From: Pseudomonadota bacterium
Lineage (GTDB): Bacteria; Myxococcota_A; Bradymonadia; UBA4248
DNA: 47,999 nt
Reading direction: 5' to 3'
Assembly: GCA_017421975.1 (NCBI GenBank)
Contig: JAFOHE010000049.1
Coordinates: 1 to 47,999, forward strand
Below are positions 4,182 through 47,999 of this stretch, one piece after another. The notes under the pieces are model-generated. The model did no database searches. It was not told where the DNA came from and worked only from the letters and a program-made list of their open reading frames with translations. Numbering within the stretch: position 1 is the stretch's first letter; each line of letters starts with the position of its first letter. A program made the position numbers and the translations under genes.

Positions 4182-4267
4182 TACATTCCGCACATCGTGT
4201 GCGATATTTTCCCTTTTAATTTTAATTTAACGTCCCCTCATTGGGGAATTCATGGAGATTTATACTC

Positions 4268-4642
4268 ATGGCCGCTACGAAAGAAGAAGTTATTGCTTAC
4301 CTTGAAAGCTTGAACATTATCGAACTTAACAACCTCGTTAAAGAACTCGAAGAAAAATGGGACGTCAAAGCCGCTTGTGGTGGTGCCGTCGTCGTCGCCG
4401 CTGCTGATGCTGCAGCTGCAGAAGAACCGACCGAATTCAAAGCCATCCTCGCTGAAGTTGGCAGCAACAAAATTGGCGTCATCAAAGAAATCCGCGCGAT
4501 CACCGGTCTTGGCCTCAAAGAAGCCAAAGAACTCGTCGATGGTGCTCCTTCCGTCATCAAAGAAGGCCTCGAGAAAGAAGCTGCTGAAGACATCAAGAAG
4601 AAAGTCGAAGCTGCTGGTGCTAAGGTCGAAATCAAAGCCTAA
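4268..4642 (+). CDS. rplL: 50S ribosomal protein L7/L12 (124 aa)
   Basis: [33 protein letters not shown]..., an Ala-rich hinge, then [60 protein letters not shown] lies upstream of the ATG at 4268. Confidence 0.96.
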
Positions 4643-4667
4643 TTTCAAGGTGGCTTGATTCCTCTTT

Positions 4668-4700
4668 AAAAAGCCTCTCCTTTTGGAGAGGCTTTTTTTT
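4668..4700 (+). terminator. Rho-independent terminator after rplL
   Basis: AGCCTCTCC-TTTT-GGAGAGGCT followed by T7. Confidence 0.85.
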
Positions 4701-4740
4701 GGCTTTCTACACGCGTGGAATCCGAAAAACTGTTGTAAAA

Positions 4741-4890
4741 AAACGCTGCGTATTGGCGTAAGCCAATAGCAGCGTCATGGCAGCGTATTGGCGTAAGCCA
4801 ATAGCAGCCATTTAAAAATAAAAACGCTGCGTATTGGCGTAAGCCAATAGCAGCGTTGCGGTAGCGTATTGGCGTAAGCCAATCGCTGCC
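4741..4890 (-). repeat. Array of four TAT/ATA-C core hairpins, organised as two copies of an ~81-bp unit
   Basis: GCGTATTGGCGTAAGCCAATAGC-type hairpins at 4745-4773, 4783-4805, 4826-4854 and 4864-4886. 4745 and 4826 carry the extended GCTGC/GCAGC outer stem. Read on the minus strand they fit the family consensus outer stem-TAT-stem-loop-stem-ATA-C-outer stem. Copies 1 and 3 are followed on the minus strand by T-runs. Confidence 0.85.
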
Positions 4891-4900
4891 GTTTTATGAT

Positions 4901-5494
4901 TTATTTTTTTTCACATACCTGGAGAGCATGTTCTGCCATTTCGCGGGCACTTGGATCTGTCTCCATTTTGAGCATCATTTCGAGATCGGGTACAAAAGCA
5001 GGCCACTGTGTGATGGCGGCGGCTCTGGCAGCGCAATAACGTGCCTTGGGCAGATCGTGATCGAGTGCGTTCGCAATGGTTTTGATCATATCGGCGTCGG
5101 GTTTGCGTCCCAAAAGTCCTAATGCAATGAGGAGACGGGCATCAAAAAAGCGTTTTTGGCACTGCTCAATGAGTTCGTTGATGGTGTAGCAATCGATGGT
5201 TGTGTTGAAGAGTTCGCGTGCGCGTTTTGAGATCCACGATTGTTTGGATTTGATTGTGGCATAACAAATTTCATCGTGGAGATCACGGACGATGGTGAGT
5301 TCTGTTTGTAGTTCTTCATCGACCGATTGCCATGTCATTTGATGTAGATGCGTCAGATTTGAAGTTTCGTCACTGACAAGCTCCAAATGGACGCCGTCTA
5401 CAGCGAGCGTCTGTATGACAGACATAATTTTCTCAAAAAACTCCGGATCATTCGGATCGGGATTATCTCTGAATACGCTTCGTCTATTGTGCAT
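4901..5494 (-). CDS. Hypothetical protein, 197 aa, possible HEAT/armadillo-like C-terminal helices
   Basis: Long ORF with ATG start. No recognisable catalytic motif. The C-terminal part (LLGRKPDADMIKTIANALDHDLPKARYCAARAAAITQWP...DPSAREMAEHAL) resembles HEAT-repeat helices. Lies downstream of and co-oriented with 5635..7086. Confidence 0.55.
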   Translation of the reverse strand: MHNRRSVFRDNPDPNDPEFFEKIMSVIQTLAVDGVHLELVSDETSNLTHLHQMTWQSVDEELQTELTIVRDLHDEICYATIKSKQSWISKRARELFNTTIDCYTINELIEQCQKRFFDARLLIALGLLGRKPDADMIKTIANALDHDLPKARYCAARAAAITQWPAFVPDLEMMLKMETDPSAREMAEHALQVCEKK

Positions 5495-5634: not shown

Positions 5635-7086
5635 TTAGCGCGCGACGCCGTAGTCGCGCAGATAGTTTCCAAAAGCGGACATAATATTGCGTGCGAGCAT
5701 GATGAACCATGAGGCATCTGGTCCGTCTTCGCAAACGATGAGAAGTTCGCGGGGGTGTTCACGCGTGCCGGTGACCGTGACAACGAGTTGGGCATCACCG
5801 TTGACTTTTGCACCAAGTGGCCATTTCATGTGGAGGCGACATCGTTTCCATGACTCTTTTTCAAGTTCAAATTCGACGAGTGGCAATCTTGAAAAACGAC
5901 ACATTTGGCGTGTTTCGCCCAGTTTTTCGAGTGAAACGGTTCTCTGAAAGAACAGCGGCAGCCATTGCACGAATAATTCTGCAATTTCAGAGACAGATCT
6001 TCGCGGTTCTTTGGCGATTCGATAAACGTAATTGCGTGAATCATTGGCAATCTCGTGTTCAGTTCGAATACGTTCATTCCTTGCCGCAGTTCCCAGACGC
6101 GCATAAGCAGCATTTAAAATGGATGTGTCGTGATATTCCCGAACAAAATCGCGACAAGCTTGAAAGACGAGATCTGTGCGCGTCGTCTGGTTGTCACGGC
6201 GCACGGTCTGTTCTGTCGCACTGTGAAACTCGACAGCTTCAAGAAACAATTGCTCGTCGTGAAAAATCAGAGAATGCGGTTTTCGTATGATATCGGAAAT
6301 CGTCTTTTCGAACATACTTTTGGCATGACAAGCTGTTTTCATACATTTTAAGATTGCGTAATAAGAAACTGCTGTTTGGCCTTCGATTTGAATCACACGG
6401 CGCGTAGACCAGGCATTTTCATCCTTGCGGTCAACAGAAATGAGCGCTCTCATAAGCTCGCCGCTCGTCACAGGATCGATATAATTAAATAGTCGAACGT
6501 CTCGTTCAGATAGTCGATGGGCAGTCGCATAGTGAAGCATGCCCGTTATCATGACATCGTATTCACTCCATATCGGTGCAGTTTGCACGATTTGAAGCTG
6601 CTCAATGTTTTCCCTGAAAATGTCACACACTTCCCGCCAATAACTGAAGGCATTTCCCAAAGGACGTCCGTCATCGGGAAAGATGCGTGTAATGAGTACG
6701 ACGCGAATTTTGTCTTTGGCTTCATGCGCAAAATTCATGGCATCGCACAGGGCAACATCGTAACCGTACCCTTCTTTTGTTCGTCCTTCTGGTGGCGGTG
6801 TGAGACAAAAATAGTAGACCGTCATCAAGTCATGAAGCATTTTGCTTGTGTCACGTTCGCTTGTCATTGAACCTAGACGCCAACGATCAATATTCCAGCC
6901 GCAGGAGGCTTCACGGCCAAGTGCCACAATACTTTCTTTGGATGAAAAATGTCTCGATAGTACATGTGAAAATAAGGCTGCAATGCCGTCGAGTTGACCT
7001 GCAATTCCGATCATTTTGTTTGTCCTGCGCGTGACGAATGGTAGCGAAAGCCCACGTTTTGAGAAACACGATTTTTTGTGCTCCAC
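5635..7086 (-). CDS. Hypothetical protein, 483 aa (459 aa if it starts at ATG 7014)
   Basis: Longest ORF in this region. GTG start at 7086 has no clear RBS; an alternative ATG (MIGIAGQLDG) is at 7014. I recognise no domain. The overlapping plus-strand ORFs are short and fragmented. Confidence 0.6.
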   Translation of the reverse strand: MEHKKSCFSKRGLSLPFVTRRTNKMIGIAGQLDGIAALFSHVLSRHFSSKESIVALGREASCGWNIDRWRLGSMTSERDTSKMLHDLMTVYYFCLTPPPEGRTKEGYGYDVALCDAMNFAHEAKDKIRVVLITRIFPDDGRPLGNAFSYWREVCDIFRENIEQLQIVQTAPIWSEYDVMITGMLHYATAHRLSERDVRLFNYIDPVTSGELMRALISVDRKDENAWSTRRVIQIEGQTAVSYYAILKCMKTACHAKSMFEKTISDIIRKPHSLIFHDEQLFLEAVEFHSATEQTVRRDNQTTRTDLVFQACRDFVREYHDTSILNAAYARLGTAARNERIRTEHEIANDSRNYVYRIAKEPRRSVSEIAELFVQWLPLFFQRTVSLEKLGETRQMCRFSRLPLVEFELEKESWKRCRLHMKWPLGAKVNGDAQLVVTVTGTREHPRELLIVCEDGPDASWFIMLARNIMSAFGNYLRDYGVAR

Positions 7087-7151
7087 AAGACAGTTTTTGG
7101 ATGGTTTCTATAAAGTGTTTGGAGAAACATGTGAAATTTTTATGTTCGCGT

Positions 7152-7206
7152 CCTATCGCCTTTGGCGATACGTCCGCGCCGTCGCTATTGCCTTTGGCAA
7201 TACGCG
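7152..7206 (+). repeat. Two TAT/ATA-C core hairpins
   Basis: C-TAT-CGCC-TTT-GGCG-ATA-C-G (7152-7172) and CGC-TAT-TGCC-TTT-GGCA-ATA-C-GCG (7183-7206). Confidence 0.6.
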
Positions 7207-7311
7207 CCGGTTCTTGTTGTGGTTTTTGCTTTCCCGCGTGCTTTCGTCATCCATAAGTTTTAATGTTCATGTTATTGATAAAAATGATGCTTATTTATGT
7301 GAACAAACAAA

Positions 7312-17433: not shown

Positions 17434-20211
17434 TTATTTTTTACCGAACCGGATACGTCTCAGGGCAACATCTAAGACGATGAGCGCGAAAGCAAACCAA
17501 AGGAAATTCGGCCAAAGGGGCGTATAGGTATGTCTTTTGACTTCGCCAGGATCGCGCATGGTCGTCAAATCGGCATCGACAAAGCCATGTGTCGTTGCTG
17601 CGACGGCGTCAAGCAAAGCGGTATTGGGCTCGAATGCGGCATATTCTGGAGCATACGGGAATGGCAGCGAGGATTGCGCGAACCCCAAACTTGTGTCATT
17701 TTGTTTGAGTTCAGCGCGAATAAAGTAGGAACCGTAGGCCGAAACGTCGAAATGTGCGGCATAGTAGCCTGGAGCAACTTGTTCGAATGGCAGTTCAAAG
17801 GCGTCGCCTTCTGGTGGTGTGACGCTGGCGAGGACGGTTAAACCGTTAATGAAGGCGTCGTTCGTGTCGATGGCATCGACGATGACCGTAGCGCGGTTAT
17901 TGTCGAGCATCGTCGTCATGGCATAGAGCGTTTCCTCTTCTTCAGACATGGTTTCTCGGACAACTTGTGCCCAGAATTTTGCAAAAGAAGCAGATTGTTT
18001 GATCCAGGCACTTGCCCAGCGATTTTTGGCATCGCTTGTAAAAACAGTTGTCGAACCGGTTCCCAGATTCCAATGCGCGAGGACTGGCGCATTTTCGGGC
18101 GATGTCAGGATAACTTCTGCACCTGGTTTGGCTTTTGTCTGCACATATCCCAGAAGCGTCTGGGGTTGAACGCCTTTGATCATGGGATTTTGCTTATTGA
18201 TTTTGGGCACAAACGGCGATTCAACGACGGCGTTATTGACGATCCTGTCCGTTTCTTCGACAAAAAGTCGCGGCACACTGGAAGCGTCATTGGCGATGTA
18301 GGCGCGGCCTTTGCCGAGGCTTGCGATACGGCTAAGAAGGACAGTATCGGCTTTGCTTAAGGCAATGGTGGAGACAGTGATCTTGGCTTTGGCCATTTCG
18401 CGGACGAGGGCATCTATGCCGGTATAGGGACTGTGACCGTCTGTCAGCAAAATGACGTGTTTGACTTTTGCGGAAACGAGGGAAAGTTCGAGGTAAGCGA
18501 GTTCGAGTGCATCTCGAATGTTTGTGCCGCCATCGGGTGCCATGCGGCTAATTTTGTCGTTAATGCTGTATCGATTGACGGCACGTGTCGTCGGTACGAC
18601 GAGGTAGGGGGCATCATCGAATCCGACGACGAGGATGCGATCCTGTGGTTTTAGCGTTGCGACGCTTTGCTTTGCGGCTTCTTTTGCCAGATCGAGGTTT
18701 CTGTTTTCGCGCATGGAACCCGATTTGTCGATGACGAGCGCGATCGCGGCGTTTGTTTTTTGTTTGGGGGTATCGGCATCGAATTTGACGGGCAATATTT
18801 TTTCGACGACGGTATCTTTGTAACCGCCTAAACCGAAGGCGTTTGAACCGCCTAAGGCAATAAAACCGCCGCCCTGACGGCGAACGTAGGATTCAAGTAG
18901 CGCCATGTTGTCGCTTGAAACGTTGATGCGGCCAGTATTGGTGACACGAGGCACGTCGCCGAGAATGACGACAGCATATTTGGCCAATTCTTTGAGTGAC
19001 GTTGGCCAACCGGCGGGCGGTCTGACATCGACATCGAAGTTTTGGCCTTCACTTTCGCCCCAACCGGCGAGGGCTCGCTGAAGATACTGTGCGGATGCGG
19101 CATCCTGTTCGATATAGAGGATTTTGGGGCGTCCTTGAATGTCGAACGCATCTTTCATGGTATTGTTCGCATGAAATGTGTCATAGGCGTCATCGACATT
19201 TTCAAGTTGGGCGAGAATTTCCATTTTGCCGGGATGATCCGGCGTCACCGTGAGCGGGATTTCGTTGAGGCCTTTTTTTATATTGAGGGTTTGCGAGAGC
19301 TTTTTATTTTTTTCGCCGTCGATGTCGAATCTGAAATCCGCCTGGGTATCGCGCGTCGATTCGATGGTCGCCACGAGTTCGAAGGGTTTACCAACGCGCA
19401 GGTTATCGCGGTCTTTGGTGTCGAGTGAGCGGATGAGGATTTCATGTTGCTCTGGAAGCGTCGGATGAATGACGTCGATGCGAATGTCATCTTGTGCTGC
19501 GCGTGCCGCCTGAGCCAGGGCATCCCCTTGTGTCTGGTTGCCATCGCTGATGAGTACAAGACGGCGTTGGTAATTCTCGGGAAAAAGTGCAGAAGCAAAA
19601 CGGATGGCAGTTTCGATGTCGGTTGCTTGTTGCTCGGGAAGGCCGGTTTCGGCGTGTCTCGCAAGAAGGGGGGCTTTCCCTCGTTCAATGGGGACGACCC
19701 GCGGCGTGGCCGCATACGTCACGACTTGTATGTCGTAATGCGTGTCTTTGGAAGCTTCGGCTTCAAGGGCTGAAGCAATGTGGCGTTCGGCTTCGTCGAG
19801 GAGTTCGTCGGGGACAGAATCGCTTACATCGACGACATAGATCATGGAGATTTGTTGATACTCGTCTGTTTTTTCGATGTCGATGAGCGCGAGTGTGATG
19901 ACGGCAATGAGTGCCACGCGTGCGATGATGCTCAGTGTCCGTTGCCACCATTTGAAATCTGTCAGCGTTCTAAAGCCAAAAAGCAGTAACAATGGCCATG
20001 CCGCGAGGATTGCCGTCCATTCGAGGTGGTTGGCGCGATACATGACCGGCATAATATCCGTATCAAAAGAAAATCCGGGAATGTGATTCAGGAACGTGTA
20101 GACATCGACGTTTGTGAATTCAGCCGTCGTACGTCCGGGTTCCATGATTCCCAGCCACCACGCGGCAAAGTTGGCGGCAAGAAGAACGATTGTGATAAGG
20201 ATACGAATCAT
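17434..20211 (-). CDS. Membrane-anchored double vWA-domain protein with glutamine-amidotransferase-like domains (925 aa)
   Basis: N-terminal and C-terminal TM helices. First vWA-like block is IYVVDVSDSV. Second vWA has a MIDAS-type motif, IALVIDKSGSM...GGTNIRDALELAY...VILLTDGHS. C-terminal block PVLAHWNLGTGSTTVFTSDAKNRWASAW is typical of the GATase1-like domain of Bat-cluster proteins. Confidence 0.8.
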   Translation of the reverse strand: MIRILITIVLLAANFAAWWLGIMEPGRTTAEFTNVDVYTFLNHIPGFSFDTDIMPVMYRANHLEWTAILAAWPLLLLFGFRTLTDFKWWQRTLSIIARVALIAVITLALIDIEKTDEYQQISMIYVVDVSDSVPDELLDEAERHIASALEAEASKDTHYDIQVVTYAATPRVVPIERGKAPLLARHAETGLPEQQATDIETAIRFASALFPENYQRRLVLISDGNQTQGDALAQAARAAQDDIRIDVIHPTLPEQHEILIRSLDTKDRDNLRVGKPFELVATIESTRDTQADFRFDIDGEKNKKLSQTLNIKKGLNEIPLTVTPDHPGKMEILAQLENVDDAYDTFHANNTMKDAFDIQGRPKILYIEQDAASAQYLQRALAGWGESEGQNFDVDVRPPAGWPTSLKELAKYAVVILGDVPRVTNTGRINVSSDNMALLESYVRRQGGGFIALGGSNAFGLGGYKDTVVEKILPVKFDADTPKQKTNAAIALVIDKSGSMRENRNLDLAKEAAKQSVATLKPQDRILVVGFDDAPYLVVPTTRAVNRYSINDKISRMAPDGGTNIRDALELAYLELSLVSAKVKHVILLTDGHSPYTGIDALVREMAKAKITVSTIALSKADTVLLSRIASLGKGRAYIANDASSVPRLFVEETDRIVNNAVVESPFVPKINKQNPMIKGVQPQTLLGYVQTKAKPGAEVILTSPENAPVLAHWNLGTGSTTVFTSDAKNRWASAWIKQSASFAKFWAQVVRETMSEEEETLYAMTTMLDNNRATVIVDAIDTNDAFINGLTVLASVTPPEGDAFELPFEQVAPGYYAAHFDVSAYGSYFIRAELKQNDTSLGFAQSSLPFPYAPEYAAFEPNTALLDAVAATTHGFVDADLTTMRDPGEVKRHTYTPLWPNFLWFAFALIVLDVALRRIRFGKK

Positions 20212-20269
20212 TTTGAGCGTAAAAAGAGGTTATGCGAAGAAACGTGGCAGATGTTTAGTATGAAAGCGG

Positions 20270-20441
20270 AGCGTATGTTGTGCAACGCAAGGCGTGCATA
20301 CATACGGTTTGCGTTGCGTTGCCCATGGCGTATGCCGACGCATCTGGTGCGTTGCACACATAGCGAAGCAGCGACGCCGTATTGACCCGAAGGGGAAAAG
20401 GCGGCGCAGAGATCGCCGTATCGTCCCGAAGGGGCGATAGG
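20270..20441 (-). repeat. TAT/ATA-C core elements in the divergent promoter region: one large-loop copy plus one good and one degenerate short copy
   Basis: GC-G-TAT-GTTGTGCAACGC...60 nt...GCGTTGCACAC-ATA-GC (20270-20363). GCC-G-TAT-CGTCCC-GAA-GGGGCG-ATA-GGC (20414-20441). Degenerate copy ~20374-20402. The bulged G on the plus strand corresponds to the bulged C on the minus strand. Confidence 0.6.
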
Positions 20442-20522
20442 CATCTCCCAATTTATCATGTTTTTTGTCTCTGTATGTGATAAAAGCACAGAATGTCATT
20501 TTGCTTTTTGAGAGGAGACGAT

Positions 20523-22409: not shown

Positions 22410-24419
22410 ATGATTTGGAATGGTTATACGCCAACGACCCTTCTCCCTGTCGTCGCGGTGATTGCGGTCATCCTTCTCATTTTGTACCTTCTCCGCGTTC
22501 GACGACGTGCCCAGACCGTGCCCTACCTCGGCTTGTGGAAACAGGTTGCCTTTAAGCGTCGCAAATGGGTTGAATACGTCCGAAGGATCGTCAGTTTATT
22601 GATATGGCTTTTGATCGTCGGCCTCGTCGCGCTTGCGTTGATGGATCCGCGTGTCGAAGAAGATAACGCGGCGCGTCGGCATGCCGTACTCGTTTTGGAT
22701 ACGAGCGCATCTATGGGGGCCGCCTACGATGGTGACGGTTGTTCGACGCGCTTTGAATGTGCCATTCGCGATGCACACACGTTTGTCGATAATATGACGC
22801 TGACGGATCGCATGACGATTATTGAAGCCGCCGGAAACGTACACGCGACAGGGCCTTTTACAGAGGATAAGCGCACGCTTCACGCGGCCCTTGATGCCCT
22901 TTCGGTGCATGCCGCATCCGATGACATGGCTTCCGCCCTCAAACTCGCCAATCAACTTTCTCAGGGACGTGCGGCTGCGCAGATCGTCCTCTTGACAGAT
23001 GGGCAGTTCGATGAAAAAGATGCCGATGTTTCCGATATTCCGCTGACCGTCGCCCTTGAACAAAAGACGTATGGTGAACCGGCACAAAACCTCGCCATTG
23101 AAGCGTTTAACGTGCGTCGGTACATTGCGAACCGCCTTGCTTTTGAGGCATTTATCCGCGTACATAATGGGTTTGATGTTCCTGTTACAGCGAAACTCGA
23201 AATCTATAATCTCGCCGAAAATGCCCAAAAGTGGACGCCCAATGCGACAGTCATTGCCGAAAAGACGCTGACGCTCGCGAGCGGTGAATCGGAAGTGCGC
23301 CTTTATGACGATTTGACGCTGACTTCCGGCAGAATGGCGGCGCGTGTACGCATTGTCGATCCACAGGATGCAAAGGATATTTTGCTCGAAGATGACGTCG
23401 CTTATGCCCGCGTGCCCGATTTTGCTCGCCCGGATATTCTCGTGGTTACGCCCGGTAACCTCTATCTCGAAGCAGCGCTCTTGCTCAACGAGAATTACCG
23501 CGTCAAAATTGTTCGCCCTGACGCACTCTCCGCGGGCGGAAAGCTGGATGTCGCGCCTTTGGCTGCTTCGCACGATATCGTCATCCTCGACAATTCTTAC
23601 CGCAATTTGCCGGAACTCGAACACACCGATGCTGCCGGTCGCATCTTTTTTATCAATCCACGCCAGGGGGAGGCGCCTTTTTCGCAGACTACCGTTAAGG
23701 ATCCCGTCGTTGAGCGCGTGAATTTGCGCCATGCGGTGAGCCGCTGGCTGAGCCTCAAAAATCTCAACATCAAGGAAGCGAGCGTCTTTAATCACGTCAA
23801 ATCGGATGACATGATTCTTCGCGCCATTGAAGGCCCCCTCGTCGTTTCGCACAAAACCGATACGCAACGCACACTTGCCGTGGGTTTCAGCCTCGTCGAA
23901 AGCGATCTCATCTTTCGCGTGGCTTTGCCTGTTTTGATGATTAATGCCGTCGATTGGTTTATGGATGAAGGCGGAGAACCTGTGCTTGCCAAAACGACGG
24001 GGGATGCCTGGCATGTCCGCGTCCCTGAAGGCATGTCACGGGCCAGGCTACAGCTACCCTCTGGACATACGCGCGATGGCATACCCGCGTATGGTGACCA
24101 GATGACCATCTATGGCGATGAAGCGGGCATTTATGTCCTTCGTGATGAGGAAAATCCGGCTCGGACGTACGAATTTGCCGCCAATTTCGCGAATGAAAAA
24201 GAGACGGATATGAAGCGTCCGCAGGTCAGGATCAAGACCGTGCATCATCCTGTGCCAACAGTGCTCGAAGCGACGCCGGTTGAATCGCCCGATGCTTTGC
24301 TTTCGCTGCTTTCGCGTCTCCCGTCGTCTGCGCAGAATATATGGATGATCGCTTTGTTGCTCGTGGGAGGCCTTTTGTTTGTTGAATGGCTCACGTGGCA
24401 TAGACGTTGGACGGTTTAA
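22410..24419 (+). CDS. BatA-like protein: N-terminal double-TM anchor plus vWA domain (669 aa)
   Basis: Two N-terminal TM helices flank LRVRRRAQTVPYLGLWK (aerotolerance-regulator N-terminal type). vWA start is AVLVLDTSASM. C-terminal TM is IWMIALLLVGGLLFVEWL. Follows DUF58 after a 7-nt gap. Confidence 0.8.
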   Translation: MIWNGYTPTTLLPVVAVIAVILLILYLLRVRRRAQTVPYLGLWKQVAFKRRKWVEYVRRIVSLLIWLLIVGLVALALMDPRVEEDNAARRHAVLVLDTSASMGAAYDGDGCSTRFECAIRDAHTFVDNMTLTDRMTIIEAAGNVHATGPFTEDKRTLHAALDALSVHAASDDMASALKLANQLSQGRAAAQIVLLTDGQFDEKDADVSDIPLTVALEQKTYGEPAQNLAIEAFNVRRYIANRLAFEAFIRVHNGFDVPVTAKLEIYNLAENAQKWTPNATVIAEKTLTLASGESEVRLYDDLTLTSGRMAARVRIVDPQDAKDILLEDDVAYARVPDFARPDILVVTPGNLYLEAALLLNENYRVKIVRPDALSAGGKLDVAPLAASHDIVILDNSYRNLPELEHTDAAGRIFFINPRQGEAPFSQTTVKDPVVERVNLRHAVSRWLSLKNLNIKEASVFNHVKSDDMILRAIEGPLVVSHKTDTQRTLAVGFSLVESDLIFRVALPVLMINAVDWFMDEGGEPVLAKTTGDAWHVRVPEGMSRARLQLPSGHTRDGIPAYGDQMTIYGDEAGIYVLRDEENPARTYEFAANFANEKETDMKRPQVRIKTVHHPVPTVLEATPVESPDALLSLLSRLPSSAQNIWMIALLLVGGLLFVEWLTWHRRWTV

Positions 24420-24424
24420 GGGGG

Positions 24425-24540
24425 ACGCGCTATTTGGTGCCTTTGGCACAAATACGCGCGTCTCAAGGCGCTATTTCGCTATGCTCAATACGCGCCTTGT
24501 TGCACGGCTATGCCCTGGCGATGCCAGGCCATACGCCGTG
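24425..24540 (+). repeat. Three tandem TAT/ATA-C core hairpins with covarying stems
   Basis: ACGCGC-TAT-TTGGTGCC-TTT-GGCACAA-ATA-C-GCGCGT (24425-24461). AAGGCGC-TAT-13 nt-ATA-C-GCGCCTT (24465-24498). CACGGC-TAT-GCCCTGGC-GAT-GCCAGGCC-ATA-C-GCCGTG (24503-24540, followed by T5). Confidence 0.8.
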
Positions 24541-24568
24541 TTTTTGTATGCCGTTGACGGCGGTGGCA

Positions 24569-25579
24569 TTAGCGAAGGTGTTTGATAATCGAACGGACGA
24601 GGTCGCGTATGCCATCTTGGGATTGGCAGCTGATGGCGTGAAATTCATAACCTTTTTCGCCAAAATATTTGGACAAACGCGGAATTTCGGAAGCGACGTA
24701 TTCTTCATCGCACTTATTGAGGACGACGATTTGTTTTTTTGATGCGAGTTCTTCGCTGAATTTGGCGAGTTCGAGATTGAGTTTTTCGAAATCGTGGATG
24801 GGATCGCGATCTGTTTCACACCCCTCAAGCTGATAAGTGACTTCGATGAGGTGAACGAGGATGCGCGTGCGTTCGAGGTGTTTAAGGAAGTCGTGGCCTA
24901 AACCTTTGCCATCGCTTGCACCGACGATGAGGCCAGGCACATCAGCGACGACGAAGGGATGATTTTCGAACATTTCGACGACGCCTAAATGGGGTGTGAG
25001 CGTCGTGAATGGGTAATCAGCAATTGTCGGACGTGCATTGGAAATACAGGAAATGAAGGTTGATTTGCCGACGCTTGGGAAGCCCAAAAGACCGACATCG
25101 GCGAGCAATTTTAGTTCGAGGCGAAGGCTTCGCTGTTCGCCGCGTCTGCCGCGTTCGGCGATGTGTGGCGAACGGTTCGTTGCCGTCGCGAAGTGAACGT
25201 TTCCGCGTCCACCGCGTCCGCCTTTGGCGACAATGACTTTTTGACCTGCTTCGGTAATATCACCGATTTGTTCGCCGCTTTCGATATCGAAAATGAGCGT
25301 GCCGACGGGAACAGGCACCGTAATGGTTTCGCCATTTTTACCGTGCAATTTTTCGCGTCCGCCGGGGGCACCATTTTTAGCGCGTAAAAAACGTCTATAA
25401 CGCAGATGGCTCAAAGTATTGACGCCGGCATCGCCGAGCAGAATGACGTCGCCGCCTTTTCCGCCGTCGCCGCCATCAGGACCACCTGTGGGGGTGAACA
25501 TTTCTCGTCTGAAAGAGGCTTTTCCGTCACCGCCTTTACCAGCAGTTGCCTCAACTTTGATTTCGTCTACAAATTTCAT
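24569..25579 (-). CDS. obg: GTPase Obg/CgtA (336 aa)
   Basis: MKFVDEIKVEATAGKGGDGKASFRREMFTPTGGPDGGDGGKGGDVIL is the Obg fold. G-domain motifs GFPSVGKST and DVPGLI. Downstream of rplU-rpmA. Confidence 0.96.
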   Translation of the reverse strand: MKFVDEIKVEATAGKGGDGKASFRREMFTPTGGPDGGDGGKGGDVILLGDAGVNTLSHLRYRRFLRAKNGAPGGREKLHGKNGETITVPVPVGTLIFDIESGEQIGDITEAGQKVIVAKGGRGGRGNVHFATATNRSPHIAERGRRGEQRSLRLELKLLADVGLLGFPSVGKSTFISCISNARPTIADYPFTTLTPHLGVVEMFENHPFVVADVPGLIVGASDGKGLGHDFLKHLERTRILVHLIEVTYQLEGCETDRDPIHDFEKLNLELAKFSEELASKKQIVVLNKCDEEYVASEIPRLSKYFGEKGYEFHAISCQSQDGIRDLVRSIIKHLR

Positions 25580-25803
25580 CGTTCTAAGGGATTGTCAGGC
25601 TCGAAGTCTTATAAAAACTTCGGATACGCAACGTGATGTGGCTTACCGTGCCGAAGATTTTGATTTCAGAGCAATGTCAAAAAATAGATGGGCTTAAAAT
25701 ACAAAAAAACACAAAAAGAATCGCAGAATAGAAGACAAGCGATGCTTTTTGTGTCTCGATGGGAGACGCGTGAACAGCGTCTCCAATAAGGCTTAACGTG
25801 AGT

Positions 25804-28735: not shown

Positions 28736-29893
28736 TTACTCGAAGCCCGGCAAAAATCCCGTCGTTTTTTCGGGCGGTTTTTTCGGGCTCCGTTTTCCTG
28801 TTTTCTTTTGATGTGTGTTTTCCGAAACACGAGCGCGCGCTTCGGCATCCGATGGGGTGTACACAGCGTCTGCAATGGGTGGGGTTTCAGGGACGGCAGA
28901 CGGTTGGACTTCGGGTGCTGAGACTTCCTTGGCTTGATACTTTCGGGCACGCATCTTACGCACGTCATCGGCTTGTGTATCAGGTACCCAGACAGATGGG
29001 GTGAGTTGTGCCGTCGTCATTGGCGAAGTCAATGAAGAAGGCTGCATGGCTGGAGCCGTTTCATGGGCTTCATCGACGTGGTCGTTTTGCGTTGCATCTG
29101 CCAATGGGGATGCGTCGTCCGTAAGACGGTCAAAGAGCGAAGATTGGGGGGGATTGACCCAGTTGAGACTCAGGATTCTCGAAAGGCGAAAACGGCGGTT
29201 TTCTTTGCGCGTGTGACAGTAGGCAATCAGGTATTTTTCGGCATTGATTTCGATGGGCGTGATGCGCCGCGTCGAAAATTCACCGCGCGTTCCTGTGTAG
29301 TAACTCATGTCCAGATCGAGTTTTTCGTCGATAGCACGCTTTAGGACGGCAATGTGATCCTGAAGACCTTTGTCTTCATCACGCGTCGAATCGGGGGTGT
29401 GTACAGCCCAGGAATCATTCATGGCACCGGCAAACCAATTGAGAAGGTCGTATGCCTCGATTTCAAGGCGCACGGCGTCGTGGGCACCGAAGGTTTTGAG
29501 AATTTGATCTCTGAACTGAAGAAGTGCCGTTTCTGAGATTGTCGTCGAGGCAAAACGCGTGAGATGGCTTGTTAGAATGACGGCCATGGCAACCGCGGCA
29601 CGCGTCTCTGTGTCATTGATCGTCAGAGGCACATTGGGGGAAATCAGCGGACGGTTAGCACCGTGGAATTCTCGCGGTTTCTGTTCCGATAAATAGGTTG
29701 CCAGTTTTCCGCTAAGAAGCGGCGGTGCAAGATGACGGGCATCCGTAATGGGTTCATCTGTCCGATCGAGCGTCGGAAGGGATGATATAGCCGAATCAGG
29801 GGGTTCTGGGGTCTTTTTTTCGTCGGCACGATCCTTGAGCCAGCGTTCAAACTGCGTTTCCTTGTGATCTGACATTGCTCCATCCTCTCTCAT
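28736..29893 (-). CDS. WYL-domain protein with long low-complexity tails (385 aa; 379 aa if it starts at ATG 29875)
   Basis: Central block LDMSYYTGTRGEFSTRRITPIEINAEKYLIAYCHTRKENRRFRLSRILSL matches the WYL domain pattern (R-x-I-x-P ... YL-x-A-x-C ... R-x-FR-x-SRI). I recognise no N-terminal HTH. The C-terminus is P/S/T/A-rich. Confidence 0.7.
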   Translation of the reverse strand: MREDGAMSDHKETQFERWLKDRADEKKTPEPPDSAISSLPTLDRTDEPITDARHLAPPLLSGKLATYLSEQKPREFHGANRPLISPNVPLTINDTETRAAVAMAVILTSHLTRFASTTISETALLQFRDQILKTFGAHDAVRLEIEAYDLLNWFAGAMNDSWAVHTPDSTRDEDKGLQDHIAVLKRAIDEKLDLDMSYYTGTRGEFSTRRITPIEINAEKYLIAYCHTRKENRRFRLSRILSLNWVNPPQSSLFDRLTDDASPLADATQNDHVDEAHETAPAMQPSSLTSPMTTAQLTPSVWVPDTQADDVRKMRARKYQAKEVSAPEVQPSAVPETPPIADAVYTPSDAEARARVSENTHQKKTGKRSPKKPPEKTTGFLPGFE

Positions 29894-29945: not shown

Positions 29946-30052
29946 GAGGGGGGCGCGCCGTATTTCCATGTGTTGTCAAAACGTGTGTTTGCTAAAAGAC
30001 CGCGTCAGCGAAGCACTCGGAAATAGGCGCGTGGGGGGACACTTCCCCCCTC
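29946..30052 (-). repeat. Composite structured element E2 (G6/C6 hairpin plus TAT/ATA-C core with 51-nt loop plus distal C-run)
   Basis: The minus strand reads GAGGGGGG-AAGTGT-CCCCCC-A-CGCGCC-TAT-TTCC...GGAA-ATA-C-GGCGCG-CCCCCCTC. The distal CCCCCCTC can pair with the 5' GAGGGGGG. The flanks are homologous to E1 at 32116-32225. Confidence 0.65.
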
Positions 30053-30074
30053 AAAAAAATGTCCCTGCGCGGGA

Positions 30075-31955
30075 TCAGTTGATTTTGTCTCCCAAGATGT
30101 AAAGCTCATCGATGCGCCAGGTCGCGTTTGTATCGGAATTGCCGTAATTATAAAGATTGAGCGTGACGTCGGTGTTCTGGGCACTGTCGAGGACAAAGGA
30201 CCAGGGTTCCCAGGAGCGATCCGTGTGTTTCATCGAATAATTGTCGGCGGTGGCCGAAAGCGTGCCTGCTGTATAGGTTGCGGCAACCATGCCGCTGTTT
30301 GAGCCGCTCGCCGCCATGTACATTTGGACGCGGATGTTCTCAAAGCCGTTCGTGTTGAATTTGACGACGAAATGTTTTTGCGTGAGCGGTGAGGCGAGGC
30401 TCGTATCGGGGCTCCAGCCGTCGGCCGAGATGGCGACGGTAGGAAAACCGGTGACGCCTGTGAGAAGTTTGAGTTCGGTCTTGCCGTTTGTGCCTGCTGT
30501 CGCCGTCAGTACGGCTGAAGCGGCGTTTGCGCCCTCTTCAGCTTTTGCGGATGCGACGGTGTCGTTCTTTTCACCCAGGGATTCGAATGTCCAGTGAGCA
30601 ATGACATCGCCGACGATTTCGGTGGCATTGACGACCCACTGGCGGTACTTTTCTTCAGTGACAAAGCCTTCTTCGCCAGGATAACCCATTTGAATGGGGC
30701 AGTTGTAGAAGCCGCCGCTGCCCTGTTTGGCGTTAATCTGGAAGGCGCAGTCGTATGTGCCGGGGCCCCAGCCCGTAGGATTGAGCCAGGCGTTCATCAG
30801 GACAGTCGAGGGATCGCCGTCGTCATCGTCAGTGACGGCAAAATTCGGATACGACGCTTTGAAGCTCCAAAGGTAAGTCTGAAGTTCAGCATGACCGCAG
30901 ACGAGGCGCCCGTAAAGGTCGGATTCATCGACGCGTTCCGGATCGACGACGATGTTGAGCTTGCCTTGAAGCCAGGTCTCGTTGGATGTTGGATCGACGT
31001 ACGTCGTCATTTCGGCGAATTCACACATCTCAATGCCGTCGCGGGGCTGGTCGGCAATTACGCATGTGCCCTTGCTATAACCTTTACAGTCTCTGGAGCA
31101 GCCGGGTTCACCGCCGGAAACGTAAGAAAGCCCCTGTTTGGAGATATCGGCGTAATCGTAGCACGTCGGGAAAGTCGAATGGATGGGTTTGCCATCTTTG
31201 CCTGTATCACAAAGCTCGCTCGATTGGCGGATGCCGTCGCCGCACGTCGTGATGACGCAGTTTTCAGTCGTGATTTCGGAACAGTCGTCGCTGCACGTGA
31301 GCGTGCCTTCGTAATTGAAAGTATGATCGAGGGATTCGATATTATTGCATGTGTAGGCACCGAAGTCGTGGTAGTCGCAGACGTCGTCACCGTCGATTCT
31401 TCGGTTCCCGCAGAGCGTCGGTTTGGAAGCATCCTGACAGATGCCGTTGGAACACGTCGGCCTCGCGGATGGACAGGGGTCGGGTATGCGCTTGCCCTGG
31501 ACGCAGATCAGGCGGACAGTGGCATCATTTTCGTCGCAGATGACGGGATCGTCGTCATTGCACGTCGTTGCCTGACCACATGCATCGCCTGTGCACGTGG
31601 ATGGCACACATTGACCGGCCTGGCACAGACCGTCATCGGGACACGCTTCTTCGGTGATGATGCCATCTTTGCATACAGATTGAGCGTGTGGATCGGTGCC
31701 ACAAGTAACATTGTAGGTGGCCTCGTCGCATATCAGACGCGTATCAACACATTGTGTATCGTTGACGCAAATGCGGTCATTGGTGCAGGTTTCCGTATGG
31801 CTTGTTCCGTTGATGCAAGTTGTCAGGACGCCGTCCTTACAGAACGTTGCCGTACCTTTTTCAGGACAGTTGGTATTGTCCGAATCGTCTTCGCGAGAGC
31901 AGCCAAAGAGGCTGGAAGAAAGGATGATACAGAAAACCAGAGCTCGAATTTTCAT
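30075..31955 (-). CDS. Secreted Cys-rich protein, probable lipoprotein, with non-Cys C-terminal beta-rich domain (626 aa)
   Basis: Start at MKIRALVFCIILSSSLFGC (signal peptide plus lipobox-like LFGC). The N-terminal ~290 aa are densely Cys-rich (C-x-DG/NG-x-C patterns). The C-terminal ~330 aa have few Cys and end WRIDELYILGDKIN. A T7 run with a small hairpin follows the stop on the minus strand (~30053-30074). Confidence 0.8.
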   Translation of the reverse strand: MKIRALVFCIILSSSLFGCSREDDSDNTNCPEKGTATFCKDGVLTTCINGTSHTETCTNDRICVNDTQCVDTRLICDEATYNVTCGTDPHAQSVCKDGIITEEACPDDGLCQAGQCVPSTCTGDACGQATTCNDDDPVICDENDATVRLICVQGKRIPDPCPSARPTCSNGICQDASKPTLCGNRRIDGDDVCDYHDFGAYTCNNIESLDHTFNYEGTLTCSDDCSEITTENCVITTCGDGIRQSSELCDTGKDGKPIHSTFPTCYDYADISKQGLSYVSGGEPGCSRDCKGYSKGTCVIADQPRDGIEMCEFAEMTTYVDPTSNETWLQGKLNIVVDPERVDESDLYGRLVCGHAELQTYLWSFKASYPNFAVTDDDDGDPSTVLMNAWLNPTGWGPGTYDCAFQINAKQGSGGFYNCPIQMGYPGEEGFVTEEKYRQWVVNATEIVGDVIAHWTFESLGEKNDTVASAKAEEGANAASAVLTATAGTNGKTELKLLTGVTGFPTVAISADGWSPDTSLASPLTQKHFVVKFNTNGFENIRVQMYMAASGSNSGMVAATYTAGTLSATADNYSMKHTDRSWEPWSFVLDSAQNTDVTLNLYNYGNSDTNATWRIDELYILGDKIN

Positions 31956-32056
31956 TTTGAGACCTCGCAAATATCATTATATATGAATGATGGTGCTGTA
32001 TGTGTGACCACTCGGTGGCATCGCAGAGAGAGGGTTCATACAAAACAAGCGCAAGA

Positions 32057-32115: not shown

Positions 32116-32225
32116 GAGGGGGGAAGCCTCCCCCTGCGCGGCTATATTTAATGTGGCCTGAAGGATCGAAAGCCATACAGTACATTTATATCCATGCCAC
32201 ATTAAATATACGCCGCTACCCCCTC
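32116..32225 (+). repeat. Composite structured element E1 (G6/C5 hairpin plus TAT/ATA-C core with 12-bp inner stem plus distal C-run)
   Basis: GAGGGGGG-AAGCCT-CCCCC-T-GCGCGGC-TAT-ATTTAATGTGGC...38 nt...GCCACATTAAAT-ATA-C-GCCGC-TA-CCCCCTC. The flanks are homologous to E2. Confidence 0.65.
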
Positions 32226-47724: not shown

Positions 47725-47734
47725 GTGAGCCTTC

Positions 47735-47839
47735 GCTATGGGCTGTGCCCATACGCTTCGGCCGGTCGGCTATTTTTCGACATGTCGAAAAATACGCCGA
47801 CCGCACACCGCTATGATGCAAAGCATCATACGCGGTGTG
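47735..47839 (+). repeat. Three tandem TAT/ATA-C core hairpins with covarying stems
   Basis: GC-TAT-GGGC-TGT-GCCC-ATA-C-GC (47735-47756). GGTCGGC-TAT-TTTTCGA-CATG-TCGAAAA-ATA-C-GCCGACC (47764-47802). CACACCGC-TAT-GATGC-AAA-GCATC-ATA-C-GCGGTGTG (47804-47839). Confidence 0.8.
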
Positions 47840-47999
47840 TTGTTTCATGCTGTTTTGCATCTTGGATTCTCAAGCTAAACATGACGATGTGGAAATATGC
47901 AAGTCCAGTTGTTCGTATGTTTTTATCTATACACGCAAAGTTTGTAGATAACGCATTATATAAAGCCCGTAGGGCTTTGGGCGAGTAGCCCCCGGCAAC

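Follow-up and report, generated by a model that had tools for sequence, protein, structure and literature searches.

Structured extragenic repeats that share a short paired box and one bulged cytosine in a clade of uncultured gut-associated bacteria

The window analyzed here, meaning the whole stretch of 47,999 nucleotides (48 kb), encodes tuf-nusG-rplKAJL-type genes, a MoxR-DUF58-BatA cluster, obg, rpmA, rplU, and lon, as well as several large proteins without Pfam domains, and a tRNA/tmRNA search of it returned tRNA-Trp only. The focal cluster, at 24423-24542 on the plus strand, sits between the stop of the BatA/VWA gene (22410-24419) and obg (24569-25579, minus strand). As a preliminary description had proposed, three adjacent hairpins lie here, at 24423-24463, 24464-24499, and 24501-24542, all on the plus strand. 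The other sites listed in that description were all recovered, the element at 20270-20364 (minus strand) as one long unit, and a degenerate copy at 20371-20407 was added to them. In total, about 17 copies occupy seven intergenic regions of the 48-kb window, and none of them lies inside a supported gene.

Based on single-strand folding, the family adopts a single continuous helix with one extrahelical C on the 3' arm. From its base, the unit consists of a variable lower stem, G:C, C:G, the bulged C, U:A, A:U, U:A, and a variable upper hairpin. The invariant box, 5'-[G/C]C-UAU ... AUA-C-G[C/G]-3', thus comprises two G:C pairs, the extrahelical C of the 3' arm, and three A:U pairs. The lower stem is GC-rich and variable, and the upper hairpin, also variable, measures about 9-100 nt. 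Two forms occur, of which class A is the simple hairpin and class B is a composite with conserved flanks; the ratio of class A to class B in the window is about 15 to 2. The same simple architecture had been assigned to all sites, which holds for most of them, whereas 29946-30059 (minus strand) and 32116-32225 (plus strand) belong to the larger class B composite. The minimum free energies lie between -15 and -32 kcal/mol, and most copies have z values from -3 to -7. A covariance model (CM) was built from 34 short units; its scores are given below with the copies, together with comparisons to the sister lineage L045 (92% nucleotide identity).

4742-4776, minus strand: class A, identified by folding; last of four in the array after the HEAT-repeat gene; T7 directly after; CM 42.1 bits.
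4777-4811, minus strand: class A; upper hairpin the same as in its neighbours; T.T mismatch in the lower stem; CM 40.7 bits.
4823-4857, minus strand: class A, identified by folding; followed by TTTTTATTTTT; CM 43.4 bits.
4858-4892, minus strand: class A variant with GAT replacing TAT, identified by folding; begins 8 nt past the stop codon at 4901-4903; CM 17.9 bits.
7148-7177, plus strand: class A with a weak lower stem, in a divergent intergenic region, identified by folding; CM 18.9 bits.
7178-7211, plus strand: class A, identified by folding; CM 37 bits.
20270-20364, minus strand: long class A with GC-TAT, an 84-nt upper part, and ATA-C-GC, from the folding of 20255-20450; the upper part has an 11-bp stem, the lower stem is very short, and the 3' box is decayed in L045.
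20371-20407, minus strand: degenerate copy with the 5' box CCTTT, identified by folding; CM 12.5 bits, E 0.79.
20410-20447, minus strand: class A variant with CC-TAT ... ATAC-GG, identified by folding, upstream of the 925-aa VWA gene; the changes in L045 improve both stems.
24423-24463, plus strand: class A, focal hairpin 1, beginning 3 nt past the BatA-like stop codon; -27.6 kcal/mol, z -6.5; CM 27.3 bits; kept in L045.
24464-24499, plus strand: class A, focal hairpin 2, identified by folding; CM 24.8 bits; the upper stem is lost in the window, and L045 retains a 22-nt upper hairpin there.
24501-24542, plus strand: class A, focal hairpin 3; -27 kcal/mol; CM 20.2 bits; followed by GTTTTTG; the upper stem differs in L045 yet pairs (GCC..GGC to GUC..GAC).
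29946-30059, minus strand: class B composite of T7, GA, a G6-AAGTG-TC6 hairpin, the bulged-C hairpin (59-nt upper part), and GCCCCCCTC; begins 15 nt past the stop of the 631-aa lipoprotein gene; upper part identical in L045.
32116-32225, plus strand: class B composite of GAGGGGGGAAGCCTCCCCCT, GCGCGGC-TAT, a 62-nt upper hairpin, ATAC-GCCGC, and TACCCCCTC; -52.7 kcal/mol, z -5.1; upstream of and antisense to the 631-aa gene.
47729-47762, plus strand: class A, identified by folding, 5 nt past the stop of the biotin-carboxylase-like gene; CM 33.8 bits.
47763-47803, plus strand: class A; -26.7 kcal/mol, z -6.7; CM 27.4 bits.
47804-47839, plus strand: class A; -26.7 kcal/mol, z -7.3; CM 34.1 bits; followed by a T-rich tract.

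Open reading frames overlap copies at 7038-7256, 20208-20489, and 47725-47988, and none of these is supported. The frame at 7038-7256 has no Pfam match, and the public gene calls place no gene on the 20270-20447 cluster (these calls do not cover 7038-7256 or 47725-47988). The 631-aa protein had no relatives in the metagenome scan; its reading frame is nevertheless a real gene. Ordinary terminators that do not carry the box are also present in the window, at 1036-1070, 4668-4697, and 25709-25754.

The pattern GCTAT-N(3-33)-ATACGC was matched 12 times in the window, against 0.27 +/- 0.53 expected from dinucleotide-preserving shuffles, none of which reached 12; the enrichment is 44-fold. Outside the hairpins, the words ATACGC and GCTAT are not over-represented, and an uptake-signal word was rejected on this ground. 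As a test of specificity, all hairpins in the window with a lower stem, a 3-bp box, an upper stem, and a 1-nt bulge were enumerated. Among the 17 distinct box-plus-bulge hairpins obtained, TAT with a C on the 3' arm accounted for 8, and every other combination of box and bulge occurred at most twice, which leaves TAT with the 3' C as the sole recurrent type. The CM recovered 12 distinct copies in the window at E < 0.03 and 26 matches at E ≤ 0.1 in 130 kb from relatives. In contrast, 602 kb from unrelated bacteria gave no CM match at E ≤ 1, and the box descriptor gave AT-rich chance matches only in the same DNA. The density of units is about 0.2-0.4 per kb, with 0.2-0.3 per kb in the relatives, and the genome-wide copy number is an extrapolation from this density.

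The closest species representative is L001, with an Obg 91% identical to that of the window, while the following Obg matches only 52%. The same L27 protein is found on human gut metagenome contigs, including those of a Hadza sample and of the NCBI MAG GCA_045596535.1; all of these are 99-100% identical to the window in nucleotides. Graded relatives were obtained through homologues of the window's 772-aa protein, which has no assigned function. The most distant of them, L052 and L053, share 79-80% identity with the window in MoxR, 66% in DUF58, and 45% in the BatA-like protein. Units with the same box are present in all relatives examined (L001, L045, and L049-L053). Collectively, these comparisons show that the family spans a deep clade of uncultured gut-associated bacteria, the nearest public MAG of which is labelled Myxococcota.

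Covariation was assessed on 119 distinct copies picked on the box alone, a choice that avoids circularity, and pairing was scored at six lower-stem and four upper-stem positions. In this set, 79% of the cells pair, compared with 62% when partners are shuffled and at most 45% when they are slid. The covariation score is 0.397 against 0.142 for shuffled partners, with none of 500 shuffles as high, although about half of the 119 copies are class B elements related by descent, so that the shuffle control overstates independence. Double changes were observed at 11 of the 15 pairs, and each lower-stem and upper-stem position carries four to six types of pair. Moreover, at orthologous sites in L045, the box and the lower stems are kept, and the upper hairpins change through indels and compensatory changes. 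Only the box is therefore kept in sequence, and both stems need merely pair. The family is thus defined by structure: the TAT/ATA-C box is fixed, and the two stems on either side of it change in a compensatory manner, as had been proposed. The earlier wording that the hairpins are "fully covarying" and share no stem sequence overstates the case, in that the copies at 4742-4892 share their upper hairpin and certain upper-hairpin subtypes recur. With enrichment found beyond the window, covariation in the stems, and the core conserved in relatives, the preliminary description stands on the three points that it had exposed to refutation.

The recurrent upper-hairpin subtypes are CGGCC..GGCCG, UUCG-stem-CUCA, and GUGCUC-stem-UUGCGCGC. 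The latter two have conserved non-Watson-Crick features, including a U.G pair in GUGCUC-stem-UUGCGCGC, and asymmetric internal loops mark the UUCG..CUCA and GUGC..GCGC upper hairpins. An asymmetry between G.U and A.C in the stems was also seen; it is not decisive, as one conserved U.G pair dominates it. Class A units are commonly arranged in head-to-tail arrays of 2-4, and in L102, inverted class A units are nested within one upper hairpin. At 4742-4892, the upper hairpin is the same in all four units, and the lower stems are set apart by a small number of substitutions, several of them compensatory; arrays in L050, L101, and L056 repeat this pattern of identical upper and diverged lower parts. 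Such a pattern is consistent with units that duplicate in tandem and whose lower stems then diverge rapidly while the structure is preserved.

The class B composite is laid out as a G5-loop-C5 hairpin (P0), the bulged hairpin, and UACCCCCUC, with the following consensus:

(UUUUUUGGGGA) GGGGGA-AGCC-UCCCCC U RNGCSGC-UAU [9-100 nt hairpin] AUA-C-GCSKC UA CCCCCUC

A scan of metagenomes with the exact pattern of the 5' flank only found this flank at 70 loci, which came from a few samples. The 3' flank, GCCGCTACCCCCTC, is nearly invariant at these loci although it was outside the search pattern, and numerous contigs end within the element. Viral contigs contained no class B match. The closing pair of P0 covaries from A-U to C-G, and RNAalifold supports P0 and the bulged hairpin only. 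The lengths of the two C-runs are linked (about 70 copies have 5/5 and five have 6/6), which may instead reflect the descent of a subfamily. CTAC, which is GTAG on the other strand, abuts the 3' foot of the hairpin and is absent from the 6-C subtype. A T-run lies immediately upstream in 32 of 61 copies. That this T-run is the tail of an upstream terminator was rejected, as no hairpin precedes it and the upstream sequence folds worse than random. An origin of class B by insertion of class A into a pre-existing P0 with target duplication was also rejected, as no solo P0 sites were found.

Four of the seven window clusters lie in sense orientation 3-15 nt past a stop codon, namely 24423-24542, 47729-47839, 4742-4892 (minus strand), and 29946-30059 (minus strand), and a T-rich tract follows most of these four. 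The remaining three, at 7148-7211, 20270-20447, and 32116-32225, are located between divergent genes. About 41 of 75 class B copies fall 0-71 nt past the stop of an ORF on the same strand, most commonly at 18-50 nt. Across the 70 metagenome loci, class B is usually located 10-50 nt past a stop codon, and copies of the family as a whole often start 3-50 nt past one. With ORFs of at least 150 aa, sense-only copies outnumber antisense-only copies by 27:9 in class B and 16:7 in class A. A run of four or more T residues follows 8 of some 38 class A clusters in the orientation of the motif and none of 56 class B clusters, and no A-run was found ahead of a cluster. Together with the clusters between divergent genes, these counts bear out the earlier view that the units are not plain terminators. 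In L051 and L053, several class A copies and one class B copy (L051, about 6950) lie antisense between co-directional genes whose annotation is confident; against such genes, class A clusters number about two sense to three antisense. Additionally, the units upstream of the 925-aa VWA gene are oppositely oriented in the window and in L049. No orientation bias with GC skew was observed (34 vs 48 clusters), and this absence counts against a lagging-strand dependence of the IS200/IS605 type. The antisense class A copies mean that an RNA role cannot account for every copy, while T-runs confined to one side, together with the preference of class B for the sense orientation, make a purely DNA-level role insufficient. 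Neither a purely RNA nor a purely DNA role covers all copies.

Searches of known families agree with the earlier remark that this consensus was not recognized as a described repeat family. In Rfam 15, the window gave no match at the gathering score, and at E ≤ 5, nothing overlaps a unit meaningfully and no ribozyme or riboswitch model appears; the sole overlap is a sub-threshold BTnc231 match (32 bits vs 80) on the array at 4667-4827. A literature search for the family, including the class B sequence, found no description. Several structured motifs were also rejected: the K-turn because there are no G.A pairs, group II intron domain V because the position of the bulge differs and there is no intron, twister, pistol, hatchet, and HDV-like ribozymes because there is no Rfam match and the strand order is wrong, and integron attC because there are no R boxes. 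As for partner proteins, the Pfam search of the window ORFs detected no Y1/HUH transposase or RAYT/IS200-like protein, and tblastn with IS608 TnpA and E. coli RAYT sequences as queries gave no match in 747 kb of clade DNA. The ORFs between inverted copies include no transposase candidate; they encode TsaD, GlyA, a Cys-rich lipoprotein, and proteins of no assigned function.

REP-like elements are common and mostly poorly understood, and REP families are usually species- or genus-specific. REP units are extragenic palindromes of 20-40 nt in high copy number, with an unpaired GTAG (or CGTC) tag at one end and a stem sequence that is kept within a family. They are mostly inverted dimers (HH/TT, BIME alternation), and the gene of the cognate RAYT, a Y1 HUH transposase, is typically flanked by repeats. 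The E. coli REP requires its mid-stem bulge, whose C, located on the 3' arm, TnpA-REP contacts; the role of the upper half is structural and non-specific only (PMC8266576). REP families are located mainly downstream of ORFs and include complementary stem variants, variable self-complementary "loops," 1-nt bulges, and G.T pairs, while a head-to-tail arrangement is rare among them (PMC3733652). Similar to REP/BIME elements, the units described here are short, extragenic, imperfect palindromes that are dense, clustered, and mostly downstream of ORFs. Both show complementary stem variants, variable self-complementary upper parts, and a mid-stem irregularity with a C on the 3' arm, and both probably act as DNA elements and as RNA hairpins. 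In contrast, what is conserved here lies within the stem, as a 5-bp box and its single bulged C, rather than at the end, as a GTAG/CGTC tag. The flanks of class A do not carry such a tag, and in class B, GTAG is on the strand where the bulge is a G of the 5' arm, the reverse of the E. coli REP. Head-to-tail order, in place of inverted order, holds for all window clusters and nearly all clusters of the relatives, neither stem is constrained in sequence across the family, the box is kept across family-level divergence, and no RAYT was found in the window or in the 747 kb of clade DNA. The comparison with REP/BIME elements and RAYT made in the preliminary description applies to the architecture and does not extend to the tag, the inverted arrays, or the stem conservation, and no RAYT was found in the DNA searched; the comparison is so far an analogy. 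Since class A has no tag, the arrays are head-to-tail, the stems are not conserved in sequence, and no RAYT was found, the family is set down as a REP-like structured repeat and is not filed as REP.

Other known systems share fewer features with the family. PATEs derived from IS200/IS605 have conserved subterminal hairpins at their left and right ends and a tetra- or pentanucleotide that serves as target or cleavage site, in a genome that encodes TnpA. In the IS608 hairpin, an extrahelical T17 on the 3' arm is read as folded single-stranded DNA (summarized in PMC8266576). The units resemble IS200/IS605 elements and their ORF-less derivatives (PATEs) in having a hairpin with one extrahelical base on the 3' arm, and class B resembles them further in its two different hairpins and preferred upstream T-run. 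They differ in that the searches turned up neither TnpA nor TnpB, conservation of the hairpin sequence stops at the box, and there is neither a GC-skew bias nor an evident defined cleavage tetranucleotide. Integron attC sites have the core sites R''/R' (RYYYAAC / GTTRRRY) and come with a cassette array and intI. Like attC, the units are defined by structure, have extrahelical bases and a central part of variable length, and directly follow ORFs, but they have no R''/R' cores, cassette arrays, or integrase, are shorter, and follow housekeeping genes. An intrinsic terminator, a GC-rich hairpin with a U-tract directly behind it at the 3' end of a transcription unit, needs no invariant box or bulge. 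The units share with terminators the GC-rich hairpin after a stop codon and, in a minority, a T-run in the same orientation; most have no T-run, and some lie in divergent promoter regions or antisense.

To account for these observations, we weighed several explanations against one another. The T-runs after some copies could mean that the units are ordinary intrinsic terminators or chance palindromes sharing a few bases, but the 44-fold enrichment over shuffles, the invariance of the box across family-level divergence, the absence of a T-run after most copies, the three clusters between divergent genes, and the presence of box-less terminators in the same window speak against this view. The enrichment, the single recurrent box type, the covariation, and the CM results refute it, and we assign next to no probability to it. 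A true REP/RAYT system (REPtron) would consist of non-autonomous units that a Y1 HUH transposase cuts and spreads in the form of ssDNA hairpins; the single-copy gene of this transposase would lie elsewhere in the genome and be flanked by units. The parallels with the E. coli REP in the lower stem, the C irregularity on the 3' arm, and the non-specific upper half (PMC8266576) argue for it, as do the dense, extragenic, and clustered distribution, the class B CTAC at the 3' foot (GTAG on the opposite strand), the near-identical class B copies at many loci, and the nested inverted copies. However, neither the window nor the 747 kb of clade DNA yielded a RAYT/IS200-like ORF, class A is tagless and the class B tag is reversed in strand relative to the E. 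coli REP, the arrays are head-to-tail rather than inverted dimers, the stems do not have the sequence conservation expected of transposed copies, and the units are stable at orthologous sites over 8% divergence; a REPtron therefore appears rather unlikely. Hardly different in probability, and also unlikely, is a new structure-recognition system formed by the box and the bulged C with a dedicated non-RAYT protein conserved in the clade, which would bind or cut the folded strand, with class B as its full substrate. If this were true, the protein would either mobilize hairpin modules into gene ends or process or terminate mRNAs, and class B might be a new structured 3'-UTR RNA with two competing pairings of the C-runs.

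Alternatively, the family could be a cis element acting purely at the RNA level, in which an RNA-binding protein or RNase, such as a factor for termination, processing, or stability, would bind or cleave at the box, and the copies would arise by local duplication and convergence rather than mobility. This is possible yet doubtful. It agrees with the four of seven window clusters that begin 3-15 nt past stop codons, the sense bias of class B with its peak 18-50 nt after stops, the T-runs found only downstream in the motif orientation (8 vs 0), the conserved U.G pair and asymmetric internal loops of the upper-hairpin subtypes, and the structure-preserving change of orthologous units. It does not explain the several class A copies and the class B copy in L051 that are antisense between co-directional annotated genes, the opposite orientation of units upstream of the 925-aa gene in the window and L049, or the nested inverted copies, and convergence cannot have produced the more than 70 class B copies that are nearly identical. 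In a narrower variant, class B itself would be a structured non-coding RNA (a 3'-UTR switch, a processing signal, or a self-cleaving motif), and class A would represent detached or degenerate modules. The conserved order of parts (U-run, GGGGA, P0, bulged hairpin, and UACCCCCUC), the covarying closing pair of P0, the C-runs that change length together, and a U-run that has no hairpin ahead of it and is thus not the tail of an upstream terminator are consistent with this proposal. We nevertheless consider it improbable in view of the lack of an Rfam ribozyme or riboswitch match even at E ≤ 5, the RNAalifold support limited to P0 and the bulged hairpin, the subfamily descent that the C-runs may reflect, and the excess of class A over class B in the window.

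The explanation that we favor, at about an even chance of being correct, is that the units are lineage-specific extragenic structured repeats of a REP/BIME-like kind, that the box is read by a protein, and that the copies function as hairpins of UTRs or terminators. The box probably serves a protein as its docking site on the folded single strand. According to this REP-like model, a protein conserved in the clade would dock on the box of the folded single strand, for which the contact of TnpA-REP with the bulged C of the E. coli REP provides a precedent, and the interaction between protein and box would maintain and spread the units. Arrays would lengthen as units duplicate locally in tandem and their lower stems then diverge through compensatory changes. 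Once settled, the units would be transcribed in UTRs as very stable hairpins that protect 3' ends, and those followed by a U-tract would terminate transcription.

The family is apparently undescribed, and it is REP-like with features that REPs do not have. Its host lineage is uncultured, and the species of the window has been recovered from human gut metagenomes, Hadza included. In practice, the units break metagenome assemblies and mislead gene callers, as the spurious ORFs that overlap several copies indicate; the CM and the class B consensus can be used to annotate genomes of the lineage and to mark the 3' ends of genes. Across family-level divergence, the constraint is confined to a 5-bp box and one extrahelical C, while everything else covaries. 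Judged from sequence, this combination of box and bulge suggests the signature of a specific trans-acting reader and may offer a handle for finding that reader.

In the window, inverted class B elements, composites of a G5-loop-C5 hairpin, a bulged-C hairpin and a conserved 3' flank, lie on both sides of a lipoprotein gene.

30075-31970, minus strand: 631-aa ORF for a Cys-rich lipoprotein with lipobox LFGCS and without a Pfam domain

The third codon positions of this ORF take 92 of the 134 substitutions between the window and the sister lineage L045, and the ORF is a real gene. In public gene calls on identical DNA, the region is divided into a 204-aa gene and an opposite-strand 460-aa gene, the latter of which is spurious. 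Additionally, the class B element at 29946-30059 is directly followed, on its downstream side, by a gene for a 385-aa WYL-domain protein (28736-29893, minus strand).

For class A, the simple bulged-C hairpins, there are four arrays, in the window and in compared loci, each with upper hairpins that are identical from one unit to the next.

Window, 4742-4892
L050, 14272-14340
L101, 2284-2355
L056, 1627-1702

Within these arrays, adjacent units share the same upper hairpin but have lower stems set apart by compensatory changes. This pattern could result either from homogenisation of the upper part or from rapid divergence of the lower stem. At 4241-4900 of the window, a bidirectional terminator (4668-4697) and then convergent genes come after rplL, whereas rpoB/rpoC follow rplL in most bacteria.

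Some class B-like copies carry a variant box, with GTCTAT in place of G[GC]CTAT or TTT in place of TAT.

L001 (nearest species representative), 2315 and 6555, plus strand
L076, 7292, plus strand
L081, ~8243, minus strand, counted on the reverse-complemented locus

As a result, counts made with the search pattern are too low for the family as a whole. Many metagenomic contigs end inside a class B element (L058, L060, L061, L074, L077, L085, L094, L095, L101, L104, L107, L117 and L118), so that short-read assembly of these genomes breaks at this repeat.

The compared loci also carry other repeats. In L049, the hairpins that precede the 925-aa VWA gene are flanked by runs of the 7-mer CTGACCA, and a second palindromic family is present.

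(GTA)GAGACG[YG]..C[RC]CGTCTC(TAC): L049, 1-300; also the upper hairpins of L070, L102 and L109

The relative L051 contains an additional repeat, flanked by T-runs or A-runs and then followed by TAGGGGGACGCCAGCGAAGCTGCCAGGGGGTTCC.

GGGGGA(R)C(W)GYTCCCCC: L051, 12664, 20307 and 21664, plus strand; 213, 1570 and 9213, minus strand

It appears to be a dispersed element in its own right, similar to a bidirectional terminator. Elsewhere in L051 (~420-445), a dinB/IMS-family polymerase gene is closely preceded by a palindrome that resembles a LexA box, CTGAACAAATGTTCAC; this palindrome is adjoined by two antisense class A units. Finally, class B in the Ga0209737 and Ga0123353 contigs usually has one more repeat after it.

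TGCGGGG(ACA or CCTCAATCGCCGG)CCCCGCAACGCCCCG, 3' of class B: L063, L065, L066, L069, L070, L072, L080, L081, L084, L099 and L121

With the TGCGGGG repeat at this position, class B forms part of mosaic, BIME-like composites.
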